NCBI GenBank assembly: GCA_039921505.1
Contig: JBDSBR010000018.1
Location: 1,233-65,232, forward strand
DNA from: Chitinophagaceae bacterium
GTDB taxonomy: Bacteria > Bacteroidota > Bacteroidia > Chitinophagales > Chitinophagaceae
Length of the DNA: 64,000 bases
Direction: 5' to 3'
In this document: positions 13,576 to 49,928 of the stretch, piece by piece
Position numbering within the stretch: position 1 is the stretch's first letter
Layout of the letters: every line of letters begins with the position of its first letter
Program-made: the position numbers and the translations under genes
The notes under the pieces: generated by a model
Databases searched by the model: none
Told to the model about the DNA's origin: nothing
The model's input: only the letters and a program-made list of their open reading frames with translations

Positions 13576-13692
13576 TAGCGAGTAGGGGATGGTAAGTGGC
13601 GAGTGGGGATCGTGAATTGTTGGGAATCGATTCCTGATTTCCCACTAGCCACTCCCACTCGCCACTAGCCACCACCCACTCACCACTCCCTA
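13576..13692. repeat. Heptamer inverted micro-repeat between divergent P-ATPase and tsaE
   Basis: GTGGCGAGTGGGG-type left arm; CCCACTAGCCACTCCCACTCGCCACTAGCCACC right arm. Confidence 0.8.
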
Positions 13693-34928: not shown

Positions 34929-37900
34929 ATGGCTATGAATGCTAAATACAAGGAATTTACAGGCCTGGATCTGCCGGGTATGGAACGGGAGATTCTTGCA
35001 GAATGGACTGAAAAACAAGCTTTTGAAAAAAGTGTGTCCCTCCGGGAAGGCGCTGCCCCCTTTGTATTTTATGAAGGGCCCCCGAGCGCCAACGGCATGC
35101 CCGGTATTCACCATGTTATTTCGAGGACACTGAAAGACCTTGTGTGCCGGTATAAGACCATGAAAGGTTTCCAGGTAAAACGAAAAGGCGGATGGGATAC
35201 CCATGGACTCCCGATCGAACTGGGCGTAGAAAAAGAACTGGGTATCACCAAGGAAGATATCGGCAAAAAAATATCAGTAGAAGAGTATAACCAGAAATGC
35301 CGCGAAGCGGTATTGCGCTATAAAGATAAATGGGATGATATCACCCGCAAGATGGGGTATTGGGTAGATCTCAACGATCCTTATATCACTTACAAGAATG
35401 AATACATTGAATCGGTTTGGTGGATATTGAGCGAGTTGTATAAAAAAGGGTTGCTCTATGAAAGTGTAAGCATCCAACCCTATTCACCTGCAGCAGGAAC
35501 CGGGTTGAGTTCGCATGAGCTAAATCAACCGGGAACCTATAAGGATGTAAAGGATACAAGTGCGGTGGCGATGTTTAAAGCCTCCCCAAACCCCTCCGAA
35601 GGAGGGGCTTATAAAAACCCCGGTATTAGCAAACTTTTTTCTGCCATTGCGGAGTCTCAGAACCCTCCTTCGGAGGGCAGGGAGGCTGAGATTTTCTTCC
35701 TCGCCTGGACTACTACTCCCTGGACGTTACCCTCTAACCTGGGATTAACTGTTGGCGGTAATATTGATTATGTGCTAGTAAAAACAACTAATCCATATCT
35801 GTATAACCCTATTAATGTTGTTTTAGCAAAACAATTGATGCCAAAATACTTTGATGGCACAAGTATTAGTGATGCTGTAGGGACCAAGTATTCAATTCTT
35901 AGTCAAGATGATAATATAAAAAGGAAAAGTGTTGAATGGGAAATTATATCCGAATTCAAAGGAAAAGAACTGGAAGGCTGTGAATACGAACAACTGCTTC
36001 CTTACAAAGCCAATTCATTAAAAGCGATAGAAGAAATAACCCCGGGTGCAAAACCATTCCGTGTAATGGTGGATAGTTTCGTTACAACCGAAGACGGTAC
36101 CGGTATTGTACACACAGCTCCGGCATTTGGCGCCGATGACTATAAAGTAGGAAAGAAATACAACATTGGCATCCTTACCATGGTTGACAGGGAAGGAAAA
36201 TTTGTAGAAGGATTAGGTGAGTTCAGCAATCGTTTTGTAAAGAATTATAAGGATGACCCGAACTATGTTGATGTAAATGTTGATATCAGCGTAAAATTGA
36301 AAAAAGAGAACCGGGCTTTTAAAGTAGAAAAATACGAACACAATTACCCGCATTGCTGGAGAACCGATAAACCTATTCTTTATTACCCGCTGGATGCCTG
36401 GTTCATTAAGACCACGGCCGTAAAAGAAAGAATGGTGGAACTGAACAAAACCATCAACTGGAAGCCCAAATCCACTGGTGACGGGCGTTTTGGTAACTGG
36501 CTGGAGAACGTGGTAGACTGGAACCTGAGCCGTTCCCGGTATTGGGGAACACCATTACCTATCTGGAGAACCGAAGAAGGCGATGAAGAAGTTTGTATTG
36601 GCTCTATAGAAGAGTTGAACGATGGTATCCGCAAAGCAAGTGAAGTATTGGGTGGCGATGTCAACAAACATTACCTGCATGAAGGCATTCTTGATCTTCA
36701 CAAACCTTATGTAGATGATATCATTCTCGTAAGCAAGTCAGGTAAGCCGATGAAAAGGGTTTCTGACCTCATCGACGTCTGGTTTGATTCCGGTTCCATG
36801 CCCTATGCCCAGTGGGGATTGCCCGATACAAGTTCAAACCAGTTTGGTCCGCTGACCGCAGAGAACTTCTTCAAATATCATGCATCTTCGAAGGCCTCCC
36901 CCTTGTGGGGAGGCTTGGAGGGGGCTGCTTTCCCGGCTGATTATATCGCCGAAGGAGTGGACCAGACAAGAGGATGGTTCTATACACTCCATGCGATTGC
37001 CGTAATGCTGTTCGACAGCGTAGCTTATAAAACCTGCGTATCCAATGGCCTCGTACTGGATAAGAACGGTAATAAAATGAGCAAACGCCTGGGCAACGTG
37101 GTTGATCCTTTCACGACGATCGAAACCTTTGGTGCCGATGCGACGAGATGGTACCTCGTTACCAATGCATCGCCCTGGGATAATATGAAATTTGACCTTG
37201 AAGGGATCAAAGAAGTACAACGTAAGTTCTTCGGCACGTTGTACAATACTTACCAGTTCTTTGCGCTTTATTCGAACGTGGATGGATTTGCTTTCAAAGA
37301 AAAATATATCCCGCTGGCCGAACGCCCGGAGATCGACCGCTGGATACTTTCCTCGCTCAATACGGTGGTAAAGCAAGCCAATGAATACATGGATGATTAT
37401 GAGCCAACACAGGCTGGTCGTGTGATAGAGGATTTCGTGGATGAACAGTTGAGTAACTGGTATGTCCGTCTTTGCCGCCGCCGTTTCTGGAAAGGTGAGT
37501 ATGAGCAGGATAAGATCTGCGCTTACCAGACATTATATGAATGCCTGGAAACAATCAGTCGCCTGGTAGCACCCATTTCTCCATTCTTCAGCGATGTATT
37601 GTTCCGCAATCTTAATGCAGTTACAAAAAGATTTAATGCAGAGTCTGTGCATCATATAAGCTATCCTGATTTAGATGCATGCCAGGACCCCCCAACGGGA
37701 GGCAGAGGGGCTATCGATGAATCGCTCGAAGAAAGAATGCAACTGGCACAGGATGTTTCTTCCCTGGTCTTATCGCTCCGGAAGAAAATGAATCTGAAAG
37801 TTCGCCAGCCTTTGCAAAAGGTACTGGTACCTGTATTGAGTGTTTCCATGAAACAGCAACTCCAAAAAGTGGAAGACCTGGTTAAAGCAGAAGTAAATGT

Positions 37901-38465
37901 AAAAGAGATTGAATACCTGGACCCGGATAATACTTTTATCCGGAAAAAGATAAAACCCAATTTTGTGGCCCTGGGCAAAAAGCTTGGTCCGAAAATGAAA
38001 TCGGTATCCACAGCTTTGGCACAATTCACCCAGGAAGAGATAGCCAGGTTGGAAAAAGAAGGTCAATTTAATTTGTCAATTGAGGGCGAACCTGTAATAT
38101 TACAGATTGCGGAAGTGGAGATCAGCAGCGAAGATATTCCCGGCTGGACCGTAGCCAATAAAGGCAGCCTGACCGTGGCGTTGGATATTACAGTGACCCC
38201 AGAACTGGAGGCCGAAGGAAATGCCCGGGAATTTGTAAACCGCATCCAGAAGATCCGTAAGGACAGCGGATTTGACCTCACTGACAGGATAGAAGTTAAA
38301 GTGTCGGTAGCAAACGGACTAAAAGATTCATTGGCTCAGTTTAAAGACTATATTTGCGCCGAAATTCTGGCAGATAAACTGGAATTTATGGCTGGGATTA
38401 AGGATGGCTCTGAGATTGAGATAAATGATGTTTCGCTAAATGTGATTGTTTTAAAAAAAGGGTAA
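34929..38465 (+). CDS. ileS: Isoleucine--tRNA ligase (type 2) with three repeat-derived in-frame inserts
   Basis: EGPPSANG, GWDTHGLP, WTTTPWTLP, GTGIVH, DWNLSRSRYWG, EGVDQTRGWF, KMSKR. Confidence 0.98.
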   Translation: MAMNAKYKEFTGLDLPGMEREILAEWTEKQAFEKSVSLREGAAPFVFYEGPPSANGMPGIHHVISRTLKDLVCRYKTMKGFQVKRKGGWDTHGLPIELGVEKELGITKEDIGKKISVEEYNQKCREAVLRYKDKWDDITRKMGYWVDLNDPYITYKNEYIESVWWILSELYKKGLLYESVSIQPYSPAAGTGLSSHELNQPGTYKDVKDTSAVAMFKASPNPSEGGAYKNPGISKLFSAIAESQNPPSEGREAEIFFLAWTTTPWTLPSNLGLTVGGNIDYVLVKTTNPYLYNPINVVLAKQLMPKYFDGTSISDAVGTKYSILSQDDNIKRKSVEWEIISEFKGKELEGCEYEQLLPYKANSLKAIEEITPGAKPFRVMVDSFVTTEDGTGIVHTAPAFGADDYKVGKKYNIGILTMVDREGKFVEGLGEFSNRFVKNYKDDPNYVDVNVDISVKLKKENRAFKVEKYEHNYPHCWRTDKPILYYPLDAWFIKTTAVKERMVELNKTINWKPKSTGDGRFGNWLENVVDWNLSRSRYWGTPLPIWRTEEGDEEVCIGSIEELNDGIRKASEVLGGDVNKHYLHEGILDLHKPYVDDIILVSKSGKPMKRVSDLIDVWFDSGSMPYAQWGLPDTSSNQFGPLTAENFFKYHASSKASPLWGGLEGAAFPADYIAEGVDQTRGWFYTLHAIAVMLFDSVAYKTCVSNGLVLDKNGNKMSKRLGNVVDPFTTIETFGADATRWYLVTNASPWDNMKFDLEGIKEVQRKFFGTLYNTYQFFALYSNVDGFAFKEKYIPLAERPEIDRWILSSLNTVVKQANEYMDDYEPTQAGRVIEDFVDEQLSNWYVRLCRRRFWKGEYEQDKICAYQTLYECLETISRLVAPISPFFSDVLFRNLNAVTKRFNAESVHHISYPDLDACQDPPTGGRGAIDESLEERMQLAQDVSSLVLSLRKKMNLKVRQPLQKVLVPVLSVSMKQQLQKVEDLVKAEVNVKEIEYLDPDNTFIRKKIKPNFVALGKKLGPKMKSVSTALAQFTQEEIARLEKEGQFNLSIEGEPVILQIAEVEISSEDIPGWTVANKGSLTVALDITVTPELEAEGNAREFVNRIQKIRKDSGFDLTDRIEVKVSVANGLKDSLAQFKDYICAEILADKLEFMAGIKDGSEIEINDVSLNVIVLKKG
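35579..35687. repeat. GC-rich palindromic element (both arms) inside ileS
   Basis: AGCCTCCCCAAACCCCTCCGAAGGAGGGG ... CCCTCCTTCGGAGGGCAGGGAGGCT. Confidence 0.85.
36894..36926. repeat. GC-rich palindromic half-element inside ileS
   Basis: GCCTCCCC-CTTGT-GGGGAGGC-TTGGAGGGGGCT. Confidence 0.75.
37688..37712. repeat. Degenerate GC-rich half-element inside ileS
   Basis: CCCCCCAACGGGAGGCAGAGGGGCT. Confidence 0.55.
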
Positions 38466-49483: not shown

Positions 49484-49586
49484 CCTCCCCAACCCCTCCA
49501 AAGGAGGGGCTTATTCAAATCATAAAATAATGAACGATTCAAATAATCAAGTTTCCTCAATCCCCCCTTCGGGGGGTGGGGGGGCT
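49484..49586. repeat. GC-rich palindromic element (both arms) overlapping the iscA start
   Basis: CCTCCCCAACCCCTCCAAAGGAGGGGCTT ... TCCCCCCTTCGGGGGGTGGGGGGGCT. Confidence 0.85.
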
Positions 49587-49928
49587 TTAGCAAACGCGAT
49601 TTATATAAGTGACAAGGCCAAGGTGAAGATTCACCAGTTGATGAAAGATGCCGGGGTGGAAGAGGATGCCTCTTATTTTGTCCGGGTAGGTGTAGTAGGT
49701 GGTGGTTGCTCTGGTTTAAGCTATAAGCTGGACTTTGATAACGAGACCAAACCAATGGACCAGGTGTTTGAGGACAATGGCATAAAAGTAGTGACTGACC
49801 TGAAGAGTTTCCTCTACCTCGTGAATACGACCCTTGACTTTTCCGATGGGTTGAACGGAAAAGGATTTTATTTCAGCAATCCTAATGCGAGCCGGACCTG
49901 TGGTTGCGGTGAGAGTTTTGCAGTGTAG
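49530..49928 (+). CDS. iscA: HesB/IscA Fe-S assembly accessory protein
   Basis: GGCSGLSY, F.NPNASRTCGCGESF. Confidence 0.93.
   Translation: MNDSNNQVSSIPPSGGGGALANAIYISDKAKVKIHQLMKDAGVEEDASYFVRVGVVGGGCSGLSYKLDFDNETKPMDQVFEDNGIKVVTDLKSFLYLVNTTLDFSDGLNGKGFYFSNPNASRTCGCGESFAV

Follow-up and report, generated by a model that had tools for sequence, protein, structure and literature searches.

Selfish repeats that insert in frame into protein-coding genes have largely been seen as a curiosity of Rickettsia without a known engine. The Rickettsia palindromic elements (RPEs) are palindromic repeats that lie in frame in housekeeping genes (Ogata et al. 2000 Science 290:347, via the review PMC10969869). 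The present work concerns a stretch of 64,000 nucleotides (the window) from a metagenome-assembled genome (MAG) of a Chitinophagaceae bacterium, in which the gene for isoleucyl-tRNA synthetase (IleRS) contains inverted, hairpin-forming repeats at positions 35579-35687 (site 1). These repeats are probably two solo end-modules of a family of hairpin-ended cassettes that carry a DUF559 nuclease; the modules appear to be read through in IleRS, and the nuclease is the likely agent of their spread. The same behaviour is thereby found in a free-living member of the Bacteroidota from soil, and with it comes a candidate engine. This engine, a small nuclease gene, is itself located in frame within genes for both aminoacyl-tRNA synthetases and biosynthetic enzymes, where selection maintains it. 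The IleRS feature itself is an RPE-like repeat, with RPEs showing the closest known behaviour, and is of biological interest mainly as a view onto the cassette family.

The likeness to RPEs consists in short palindromic repeats with a conserved peptide, which are found in many unrelated housekeeping genes without a break of the frame and at positions compatible with the protein fold; copies also lie between genes. The same analogy had been drawn in a preliminary description of the locus and holds, as the repeats are in frame in unrelated genes and missing from orthologues. The modules differ from RPEs in size (27-30 nt, or about 105 nt for a pair, versus about 150 nt), in their richness in GC and in their host, a free-living member of the Bacteroidota, and are likened to them by behaviour, not by sequence. 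Moreover, the family has a protein-coding full-length form with DUF559, which is embedded in frame, whereas PMC10969869 gives RPEs no such partner.

The REP/REPIN-RAYT system (REP, repetitive extragenic palindromic; PMC3733652), the nearest known one in organisation, shares with the modules a GC-rich hairpin that occurs singly, in inverted pairs and in arrays, and a tie between the repeat and one small enzyme gene, which the repeats flank and whose variants are paired with variants of the repeat. However, the enzyme considered here is a Vsr-like PD-(D/E)xK nuclease and not an HUH Y1 transposase, the modules are mostly intragenic and seem to be translated, and the RAYT-like genes of the genome carry other repeats. 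A selfish nuclease of the Vsr fold in an essential gene, the nearest precedent on the enzyme side, is known from I-Bth0305I, a Vsr-like EDxHD homing endonuclease (PMC3239194; PDB 3r3p), which is encoded within a self-splicing group I intron (PMC3239194). In contrast, no intron RNA or intein was found in the present case; the nuclease is apparently produced as an interior domain of its host protein and, unlike the intron-borne I-Bth0305I, sits between hairpin-encoded linkers. Bacterial MITEs (transposable elements of the miniature inverted-repeat type), which are derived from insertion sequences (IS), resemble the family in their terminal inverted repeats and their internally deleted, non-autonomous copies (PMC10969869), and occasional in-frame fusions of MITEs are described for ERIC, QMITE1 and BOX (PMC10969869). 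The present family differs in that the parent is without a transposase, no clear target-site duplication is seen, single ends stand alone and intragenic modules keep a strict single reading frame. Four miniature copies, on contigs C19, C20, C30 and C1, do show the classical MITE trait of sharing their ends and an internal extension with the cassette in the CinA gene, whereas the IleRS pair does not have the internally deleted centre of a MITE, its centre being apparently native.

None of these systems combines a Vsr-like nuclease, hairpin modules and the apparent translation of both inside host proteins. The titles and abstracts listed for DUF559 yielded nothing on mobile or in-frame insertions, a search on palindromic, in-frame elements of Bacteroidetes found nothing relevant, and the 2024 MITE review PMC10969869 contains no Bacteroidota or nuclease-linked case. 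No description of the family was found in the searchable literature, and it is apparently new.

Genome, alignments and searches

The window corresponds to C18:1233-65232 of the MAG, which originates from a rhizosphere metagenome sequenced in three DNA runs and comprises 3,795,580 bp in 40 contigs with 44% GC; it is referred to as G000 and its contigs by C numbers. IleRS was aligned across 17 sequences, 11 of the same genus and six of the same order. Insert boundaries in IleRS were taken from codon and protein alignments; MAFFT DNA alignments placed the gaps wrongly at sites 1 and 3, and the row of genome G015 was left out of the DNA comparison of site 1. The module family was searched on the genome with an iterated nhmmer profile at a cut-off of E<=0.05, and a module was counted as intragenic when it lay at least 30 codons inside an open reading frame (ORF) of at least 250 aa. 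Loop centres were compared by their ungapped BLOSUM62 score with shuffle p values. The survey of DUF559 covered 121 Bacteroidota genomes.

Two modules at site 1 of IleRS

IleRS is 74-85% identical to its orthologues in the same genus and 53-61% identical to others in the order. Its nearest matches are Chitinophagaceae MAGs and isolates (best 79%), the listed loci including cultured strains of Terrimonas, Niastella, Chitinophaga and Ferruginibacter, and the closest solved relative is the Ile-tRNA ligase 8c8w_A (E 2e-230). Site 1 is a hypervariable loop that joins KDTSxVAMFK to FFLAWTTTPW directly upstream of the WTTTPWT-bearing CP1 editing domain, and the loop core [IV]RNEKSEFLFKAIxxx is kept across the genus and in most order-level sequences. 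The sequence of 35579-35687 is AGCCTCCCCAAACCCCTCCGAAGGAGGGGCTTATAAAAACCCCGGTATTAGCAAACTTTTTTCTGCCATTGCGGAGTCTCAGAACCCTCCTTCGGAGGGCAGGGAGGCT. Using a repeat finder, two 15-nt arms with 100% complementarity, CCCTCCGAAGGAGGG (35592-35606) and CCCTCCTTCGGAGGG (35663-35677), were detected, as were outer 8-nt arms, AGCCTCCC (35579-35586) and GGGAGGCT (35680-35687), and a local hairpin within the left arm (35588-35610). The stretch is in frame in the IleRS ORF (...FK ASPNPSEGGAYKNPGISKLFSAIAESQNPPSEGREA EIFFLAWTTTPWTLP, with EIFFLAWTTTPWTLP directly after it), and the loop of this genome reads KA-[SPNPSEGGA]-YKNPGISKLFSAIAES-[QNPPSEGREA]-EIFFLAW; if IleRS is read through, a peptide across a host-module junction would be, for example, ...MFKASPNPSEGGAYK.... 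The coordinates, both hairpins, the inverted symmetry and the in-frame peptides had all been given correctly in the preliminary description.

The first 32 nt of the left arm are 100% identical to C19:140626-140657, C20:16115-16146 and C30:63838-63869, and the 30-nt left arm found no match in 100 dinucleotide-preserving shuffles of the window with three mismatches allowed; therefore, the left arm is not a product of chance. The left insert has 27 nt, with an edge that is uncertain by 3 nt on account of the flanking GCC and GCT, and is missing in all 16 aligned orthologues, in which KA runs straight into [IV][RQ][ND]. The core module on the right, QNPPSEGREA, has 30 nt (35658-35687) with the hairpin CCCTCC-ttcg-GAGGG followed by CAGGGAGGC, and upstream of it lies a possible internal extension of 9 nt, GCGGAGTCT; at the position of the right arm, orthologues have a hypervariable segment or nothing. 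In the 8c8w structure, all three places in which IleRS carries a module are without residues. An origin at the DNA level, and not by protein selection, had been proposed earlier and is supported by the identical 32-nt copies in unrelated genes and by the lack of the site 1 modules in the 16 orthologues; the comparison of IleRS orthologues for indels, suggested at the same time, further revealed clean in-frame indels at two more sites (sites 2 and 3).

One part of that description is not supported by the alignments, namely the reading of 35579-35687 as a single complete element. Without gaps and at the same offset, the 13-16 codons that separate the arms align with native loops of orthologues, including IRNEKSEFLFKAIGDS; subtraction of 27 and 30 nt leaves exactly the 16-aa length of the G012 and G011 loops; and the DNA of the centre shows the third-codon-position divergence of orthologous coding DNA. 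On these grounds, site 1 is best read as two solo arms in opposite orientation, which would flank 13-16 native codons, and its 109 nt are probably not one complete element. Compared with the loops of 12 orthologues, the centre gave p <0.02 for nine and 0.03-0.06 for the other three, with the strongest match to G008 (BLOSUM62 score 23, p = 1.5e-4) and p values of about 3e-3 for G001, G005 and the order-level G030. The centres of three of the four miniature copies gave no significant score (p 0.25-0.67), and that of C20 was marginal (p = 0.05 ungapped, 0.02 gapped). In addition, 109 nt is not a multiple of three; the arms have 27 nt and 30 or 39 nt.

Another reading, which we consider unlikely, is that a single complete miniature element of about 108 nt lies between KA and EIFFLAW, where it replaced the native loop or followed its loss. 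Three observations speak for it and thus against two solo arms. First, the length of 109 nt and the arm spacing match the miniature copies of C19, C30 and C1 (105-106 nt), the spacing in IleRS (39-48 nt) being equal to the centre length of true miniature copies (47-50 nt). Second, the right arm carries the extension CGGAGTCT, which is also found next to modules in the copies of C1, C19 and C20, so that the right insert may be 39 nt and the native core 13 aa. Third, the solved IleRS 8c8w has just four residues in the site 1 loop; a near-zero native loop is therefore viable, and a complete element that replaces the loop is not impossible. However, a single element would leave unexplained why the centre matches the loops of the 12 orthologues at one offset and not those of most miniature copies, why deletion of the arms gives back the loop length of G012 and G011, and why the total is indivisible by three. 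The S-x-F-L-F motif is present in every orthologue of the order, and G000 would have to have lost and regained it by chance.

Insertions of another kind are found in IleRS of related genomes. In the sister species G006 (L031:204-4100), residues ~217-410 form an unrelated insert of ~190 aa in the site 1 loop, which matches the Pfam large polyvalent-protein-associated domain 3 (LPD3, E 3e-11). The IleRS gene of G004 (L033:1383-1385) is interrupted by one in-frame TGA, which follows an additional ~100 aa near the start of the editing domain and could mean a pseudogene, a sequencing error or a case of recoding.

A genome-wide family of in-frame modules

The 3.8-Mb genome contains 29 modules in size classes of 27 and 30 nt. 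Twenty-two of them lie deep within ORFs, in at least 11 genes; ten host ORFs were checked by Pfam, and each proved to be a real gene whose domains lie to either side of the module. These hosts are RibD, an IcmF-like methylmalonyl-CoA mutase, a DUF255 thioredoxin-domain protein, urocanase, an S-adenosylmethionine (SAM) methyltransferase, an alpha/beta hydrolase, MiaB, RarA/MgsA, PurH and an RlmD-like methyltransferase. The modules are open in all six frames and each has a length that is a multiple of three. Nevertheless, all 22 intragenic modules use a single frame per orientation, for which the chance is about (1/3)^20 = 3e-10; a genome-wide count and in-frame fraction had been called for earlier, and this is the outcome. 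In the G-orientation, with the G-rich tail on the coding strand, the peptide is xPPSEGxGEA (13 copies), and in the C-orientation, with the tail on the other strand, it is ASPNPSEGGA (nine copies). The frames that are not used would encode Arg-rich (LRRRG) or Trp/Phe-containing peptides.

The miniature copies on C19, C20 (in MiaB), C30 and C1 (in RibD) have 105-134 nt with both ends kept and share the internal extension CTTTAGAyyCCGA with the CinA cassette. Together with the full-length cassettes and the single arms, they suggest a series that runs from cassette to miniature copy to solo arm. In the source metagenome, unitigs end inside the left module of site 1 and contigs break at the repeat, and the word depth over this module (35573-35663, runs X1-X3) amounts to about 10-30 times the value in the remainder of the gene, with the excess coming from other copies; the module family is therefore abundant across the metagenome and fragments its assemblies.

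The gene for the IcmF-like mutase (1176 aa) harbours opposite solo modules at C3:4190-4220 and C3:6021-6051, both in the usual frame. As these are 1.8 kb apart, inverted solo arms need not lie close to each other.

DUF559 cassettes

Six DUF559 genes are present in the genome (E 5e-37 to 8e-29), all of which are bracketed by inverted hairpin modules, each pair with its own stem variant. Four of the six lie in open frames of 1128, 491, 607 and 1101 aa, which encode leucyl-tRNA synthetase (LeuRS), chorismate synthase (AroC), CinA and MetH. In these chimeric ORFs, host domains are found on both sides of the nuclease in the same strand and frame, stop codons are lacking, and three of the four have no Met ahead of the nuclease. 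Pfam detected only host domains and DUF559 in the four ORFs, with no Hint/intein domain, and a related nuclease model below threshold over the same stretch. The only ORF between the full-length ends is DUF559, and no parent IS transposase was found there. Rfam gave no family in IleRS, the CinA and MetH cassettes and two miniature-copy loci (E<=0.1-1).

The CinA cassette links the IleRS modules to a nuclease. A hidden Markov model built from the IleRS-type arms matches both of its flanks (C37:13146-13170 and 13656-13676), and its peptides SPNPSEG and FPSEGREA correspond to SPNPSEGG and PPSEGREA of IleRS. The earlier suggestions that similar arms flank DUF559 genes and that copies enclosing a nuclease ORF might be found were both correct for this genome, with all six genes bracketed and the module type of IleRS at CinA. 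To call the IleRS arms a non-autonomous derivative, as was done at the time, is a fair description. Among solved structures, the CinA DUF559 domain matches 3hrl, a DUF559 'endonuclease-like protein' (E 7e-23), and more weakly 3r3p, I-Bth0305I (E 0.008); by this second likeness, a homing-type role for the nuclease fold has a precedent.

The two free-standing DUF559 copies, one of which lies at C8:85015-85329, have loops that contain a stop codon (TAAA). In the other, at C29:11529-11843, the upstream gene appears to take its final codons and its stop from the left hairpin of the cassette (loop TAAA). By eye, the neighbouring genes look trpB-like and trpA-like.

Selection on the cassettes and movement between genes

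The six paralogous nucleases are 38-53% identical to each other with saturated synonymous sites; they are old lineages that have long been separate, and every one has a stem of its own. Embedded cassettes that are orthologous occupy the same site of MetH in G000, G012 and G002 and of CinA in G000, G018 and G005. LeuRS has two sites that are used within the genus: the first is occupied in G000 (C25:13952-14263) and at L140, the second in G001, G002, G008 and G018 (L142, L147, L148 and L146). In the closer orthologue pairs, the embedded nuclease domain has a non-synonymous divergence (pN) of 0.14-0.20 versus a synonymous divergence (pS) of 0.65-0.85, with an omega of about 0.07-0.10 where computable and a pN of 1.2-2 times that of the host; pairs with the most diverged member (G005 for CinA, G018 for LeuRS site b) reach a pN of 0.31-0.38 at a domain identity of 42-50%. 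Since pN is far below pS, the nuclease is kept by selection while it is embedded. The stems of the MetH cassette are unchanged (GCCCCTTCCC...GGGAAGGGG and TTCCCCC...GGGGGA) and its loops vary (GCAA/AAAG/GGGG and AGC/TTT/TTC); the stems of the CinA cassette vary by compensating pairs (TCCCCC/GGGGGA versus CCCCTC/GGAGGGG). In line with selection on the stems, pS is also lower in linker plus module (0.38-0.59) than in the host (0.65-0.82).

An amidohydrolase-family gene of G015 (L143, G015:C449:6007-7327) carries a CinA-type cassette in frame, which is 65-70% identical to that of G000, and the identity falls to background exactly at the modules. One cassette lineage is thus present in two unrelated hosts, which is direct evidence that a module-bounded unit moves from gene to gene and lands in frame. 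The second LeuRS site lies directly before VYTTRPDT and is the structural counterpart of IleRS site 1 before WTTTPWT; the loop in front of the editing domain has therefore served repeatedly as a permissive site. Across the survey, 59 of the 121 genomes contain DUF559, and 26 of 140 matches sit within open frames that measure 370 aa or more; the 26 come from 18 genomes, including the one studied here.

Proposed mechanism and alternative readings

In the mechanism that we propose, the full-length form consists of modules, a linker, the DUF559 nuclease (Vsr-like, PD-(D/E)xK) and further modules, with no start or stop of its own when embedded, and both the miniature copies (~105-134 nt) and the solo arms would be derived from this cassette. 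Because the modules are multiples of three, open and in one Pro/Ser/Glu/Gly frame, the ribosome most likely reads straight through them, and IleRS would gain two flexible loop segments rich in these four residues. The cutting that spreads the modules would come from a DUF559 nuclease whose ends match theirs, in this genome the copy within CinA; the nuclease may act on hairpins or on empty sites, spread may proceed by repair-mediated copying or by cut-and-paste, and solo arms may be partial products or deletion remnants. Presumably, only insertions that keep the frame and encode a harmless peptide survive in essential genes, the single frame reflecting selection against other peptides, and solo modules would then decay neutrally. 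A bolder idea, put forward tentatively and with more doubt than belief, is that the DUF559 cassette forms a distinct class of autonomous mobile element, whose nuclease without start and stop would be expressed only inside an essential host protein between hairpin-encoded Pro/Gly linkers and which would copy itself via its own ends or empty sites; the IleRS modules would then be abortive footprints, and the fixed spacing of the arms of ~40-50 nt, around native centres and element centres alike, might reflect the geometry of cutting and repair.

If the proposed reading is true, DUF559, a very common domain of unknown function, gains a role, and a third lifestyle is added for a nuclease gene inside an essential gene, beside introns and inteins. 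Odd PPSEG/GGRGA insertions in protein alignments of Bacteroidota would be explained, and the loop before the editing domain of IleRS and LeuRS would be a natural permissive site useful for protein engineering. For annotation, it matters that the inserts inflate protein lengths and break metagenome assemblies.

Several points weigh against this reading. We infer read-through from DNA alone, the source runs being DNA only, and we know of no biochemical activity of DUF559. No clean deletion (empty-site) allele of site 1 was found in near-identical strains, and the metagenome contigs over IleRS break at the repeat; the common borders there are too short to call a target-site duplication (GC or GCY at the left module, GAG-N-CT at the right arm). 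The lower pS of linker plus module stems from ~50-80 codons per comparison. The AlphaFold2 model of IleRS, made from the 17-sequence alignment, is poor and hardly informative (mean pLDDT 63.5, pTM 0.48, with much of the catalytic core also <50), and a pLDDT of <50 for the modules next to a helix for the native centre (residues 231-243) lends it weak support only.

With a different mobiliser, the modules would be REP/REPIN-type repeats that are moved by RAYT-like Y1 transposases, and DUF559 would be a mere frequent neighbour. Six Y1_Tnp genes (PF01797) of 158-186 aa are indeed present in the genome, and REP-type repeats are likewise short GC-rich palindromes. However, each Y1_Tnp gene has different repeats of its own, for example CCCGTAGGGA- and GCTCCGTAGGAGC-type arrays, and a search at E<=100 still found all six to be free of DUF559-type modules up to a distance of 400 nt. 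Modules of the IleRS type flank the CinA DUF559 instead, matched inverted hairpins surround six of six DUF559 genes, and REPs are extragenic, whereas 22 of the 29 modules are intragenic, which makes this reading very improbable.

Little credit can also be given to a removal of the inserts before the translation product matures, by hairpin-guided RNA excision or by protein splicing, so that mature IleRS would be without them. The inverted GC-rich ends could join the boundaries in RNA, and the runs of this genome are DNA only. On the other side, every intragenic copy keeps the frame, has a length divisible by three and is read in one and the same of the three frames, which would be needless and pointless if the inserts were removed. 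The embedded DUF559 has no start of its own and yet is under purifying selection in the host frame, solo modules possess one end only, and neither a Hint/intein domain in the four hosts (Pfam) nor an Rfam match in IleRS and four cassette or miniature-copy loci (E<=0.1-1) was found.

Chimeric assembly joins, which a MAG with unitig breaks and 10-30-fold word depth in the left module might suggest, and convergent low-complexity linkers selected at the protein level deserve next to no credence and are excluded, since the sequence on both sides of each module belongs to one IleRS gene, which is in frame and runs colinear with its orthologues, other species with assemblies of their own have modules at the positions of sites 2 and 3, and an identity of 32 nt between unrelated genes cannot arise at the protein level.

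The Y1_Tnp genes are located at C20:11774-12118, C2:82149-82484, C8:389386-389730, C28:96834-97178, C8:407234-407578 and C8:325285-325503. With their own palindromic arrays, they form a separate REP system in the same genome.

Further modules in the window

Besides site 1, IleRS contains a module at each of two other sites, and an inverted pair lies at iscU and iscA (Table 1).

Table 1. Positions of the IleRS gene, its modules and the iscU-iscA pair in the window
Feature	Position	Strand	Details
Isoleucyl-tRNA synthetase (host gene)	34929..38465	+	1178 aa, intact reading frame; from ORF list and translation
Site 1, left putative solo module, C-orientation, (A)SPNPSEGGA	35580..35609	+	Hairpin CCCCTCC-gaa-GGAGGGG; nhmmer E 8e-9
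Site 1, probable native loop core YKNPGISKLFSAI	35610..35648	+	May reach 35657 (AES); from ungapped alignment with orthologue loops
Site 1, right putative solo arm, G-orientation	35649..35687	+	nhmmer E 5e-6
Site 2, second, older module, ASPLWGGLEGA	36894..36926	+	Hairpin GCCTCCCC-cttgt-GGGGAGGC, then TTGGAGGGGGCT
Site 3, third, old 27-nt module, QDPPTGGRG(A)	37683..37712	+	Hairpin degraded in this genome
Extragenic module, C-orientation, downstream of iscU	49484..49512	+	E 1.3e-5
Partner module, G-orientation, IPPSGGGGA in the usual frame	49559..49586	+	In the N-terminal extension of the IscA ORF 49530-49928

The module at site 2 is diverged, and G001 has TPPSEGLGEA at the same place. G017 possesses the same long loop variant without a module, and the loop is short in most orthologues and in the solved structure. 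Site 3 is a clean indel of nine codons: G000, G001, G013, G005 and G002 have them, and six further species of this genus do not. G001 retains an intact hairpin (CCCCCC-aac-GGGGGG, then CAGGGGGGC), and in G000, G005 and G002, synonymous and non-synonymous changes break the stem; the decay of old solo modules therefore affects the DNA and leaves the reading frame unharmed. A conserved peptide with a synonymously destroyed palindrome, which the preliminary description regarded as speaking against its view, is thus found at this third module, where it shows decay after insertion and not an origin at the protein level.

The carriers of the site 3 module are not monophyletic on the IleRS tree, as G013 has it and its sister G015 is without it. 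A single ancient origin with simple vertical inheritance was rejected for this reason. In alignment A3 (37650-37733), the flanks co-vary with the module (SYPDIDAT with it versus DFPVANES without it), which, with the lack of monophyly, points to recombination tracts or to repeated gain and loss.

The extragenic copy at 49484, which had been described as nearly identical to the left arm of site 1, differs from it at two points in 32 nt, a deleted A and a G>A change. In relatives, no module was found in the iscU-iscA spacer. The inverted pair spans 49484-49586 and contains the sole ATG between its arms. The N-terminus of IscA reads MNDSNNQVSS[IPPSGGGGA]LANAIYI in this genome and MSVELANAIYI in G001, or similar in relatives.

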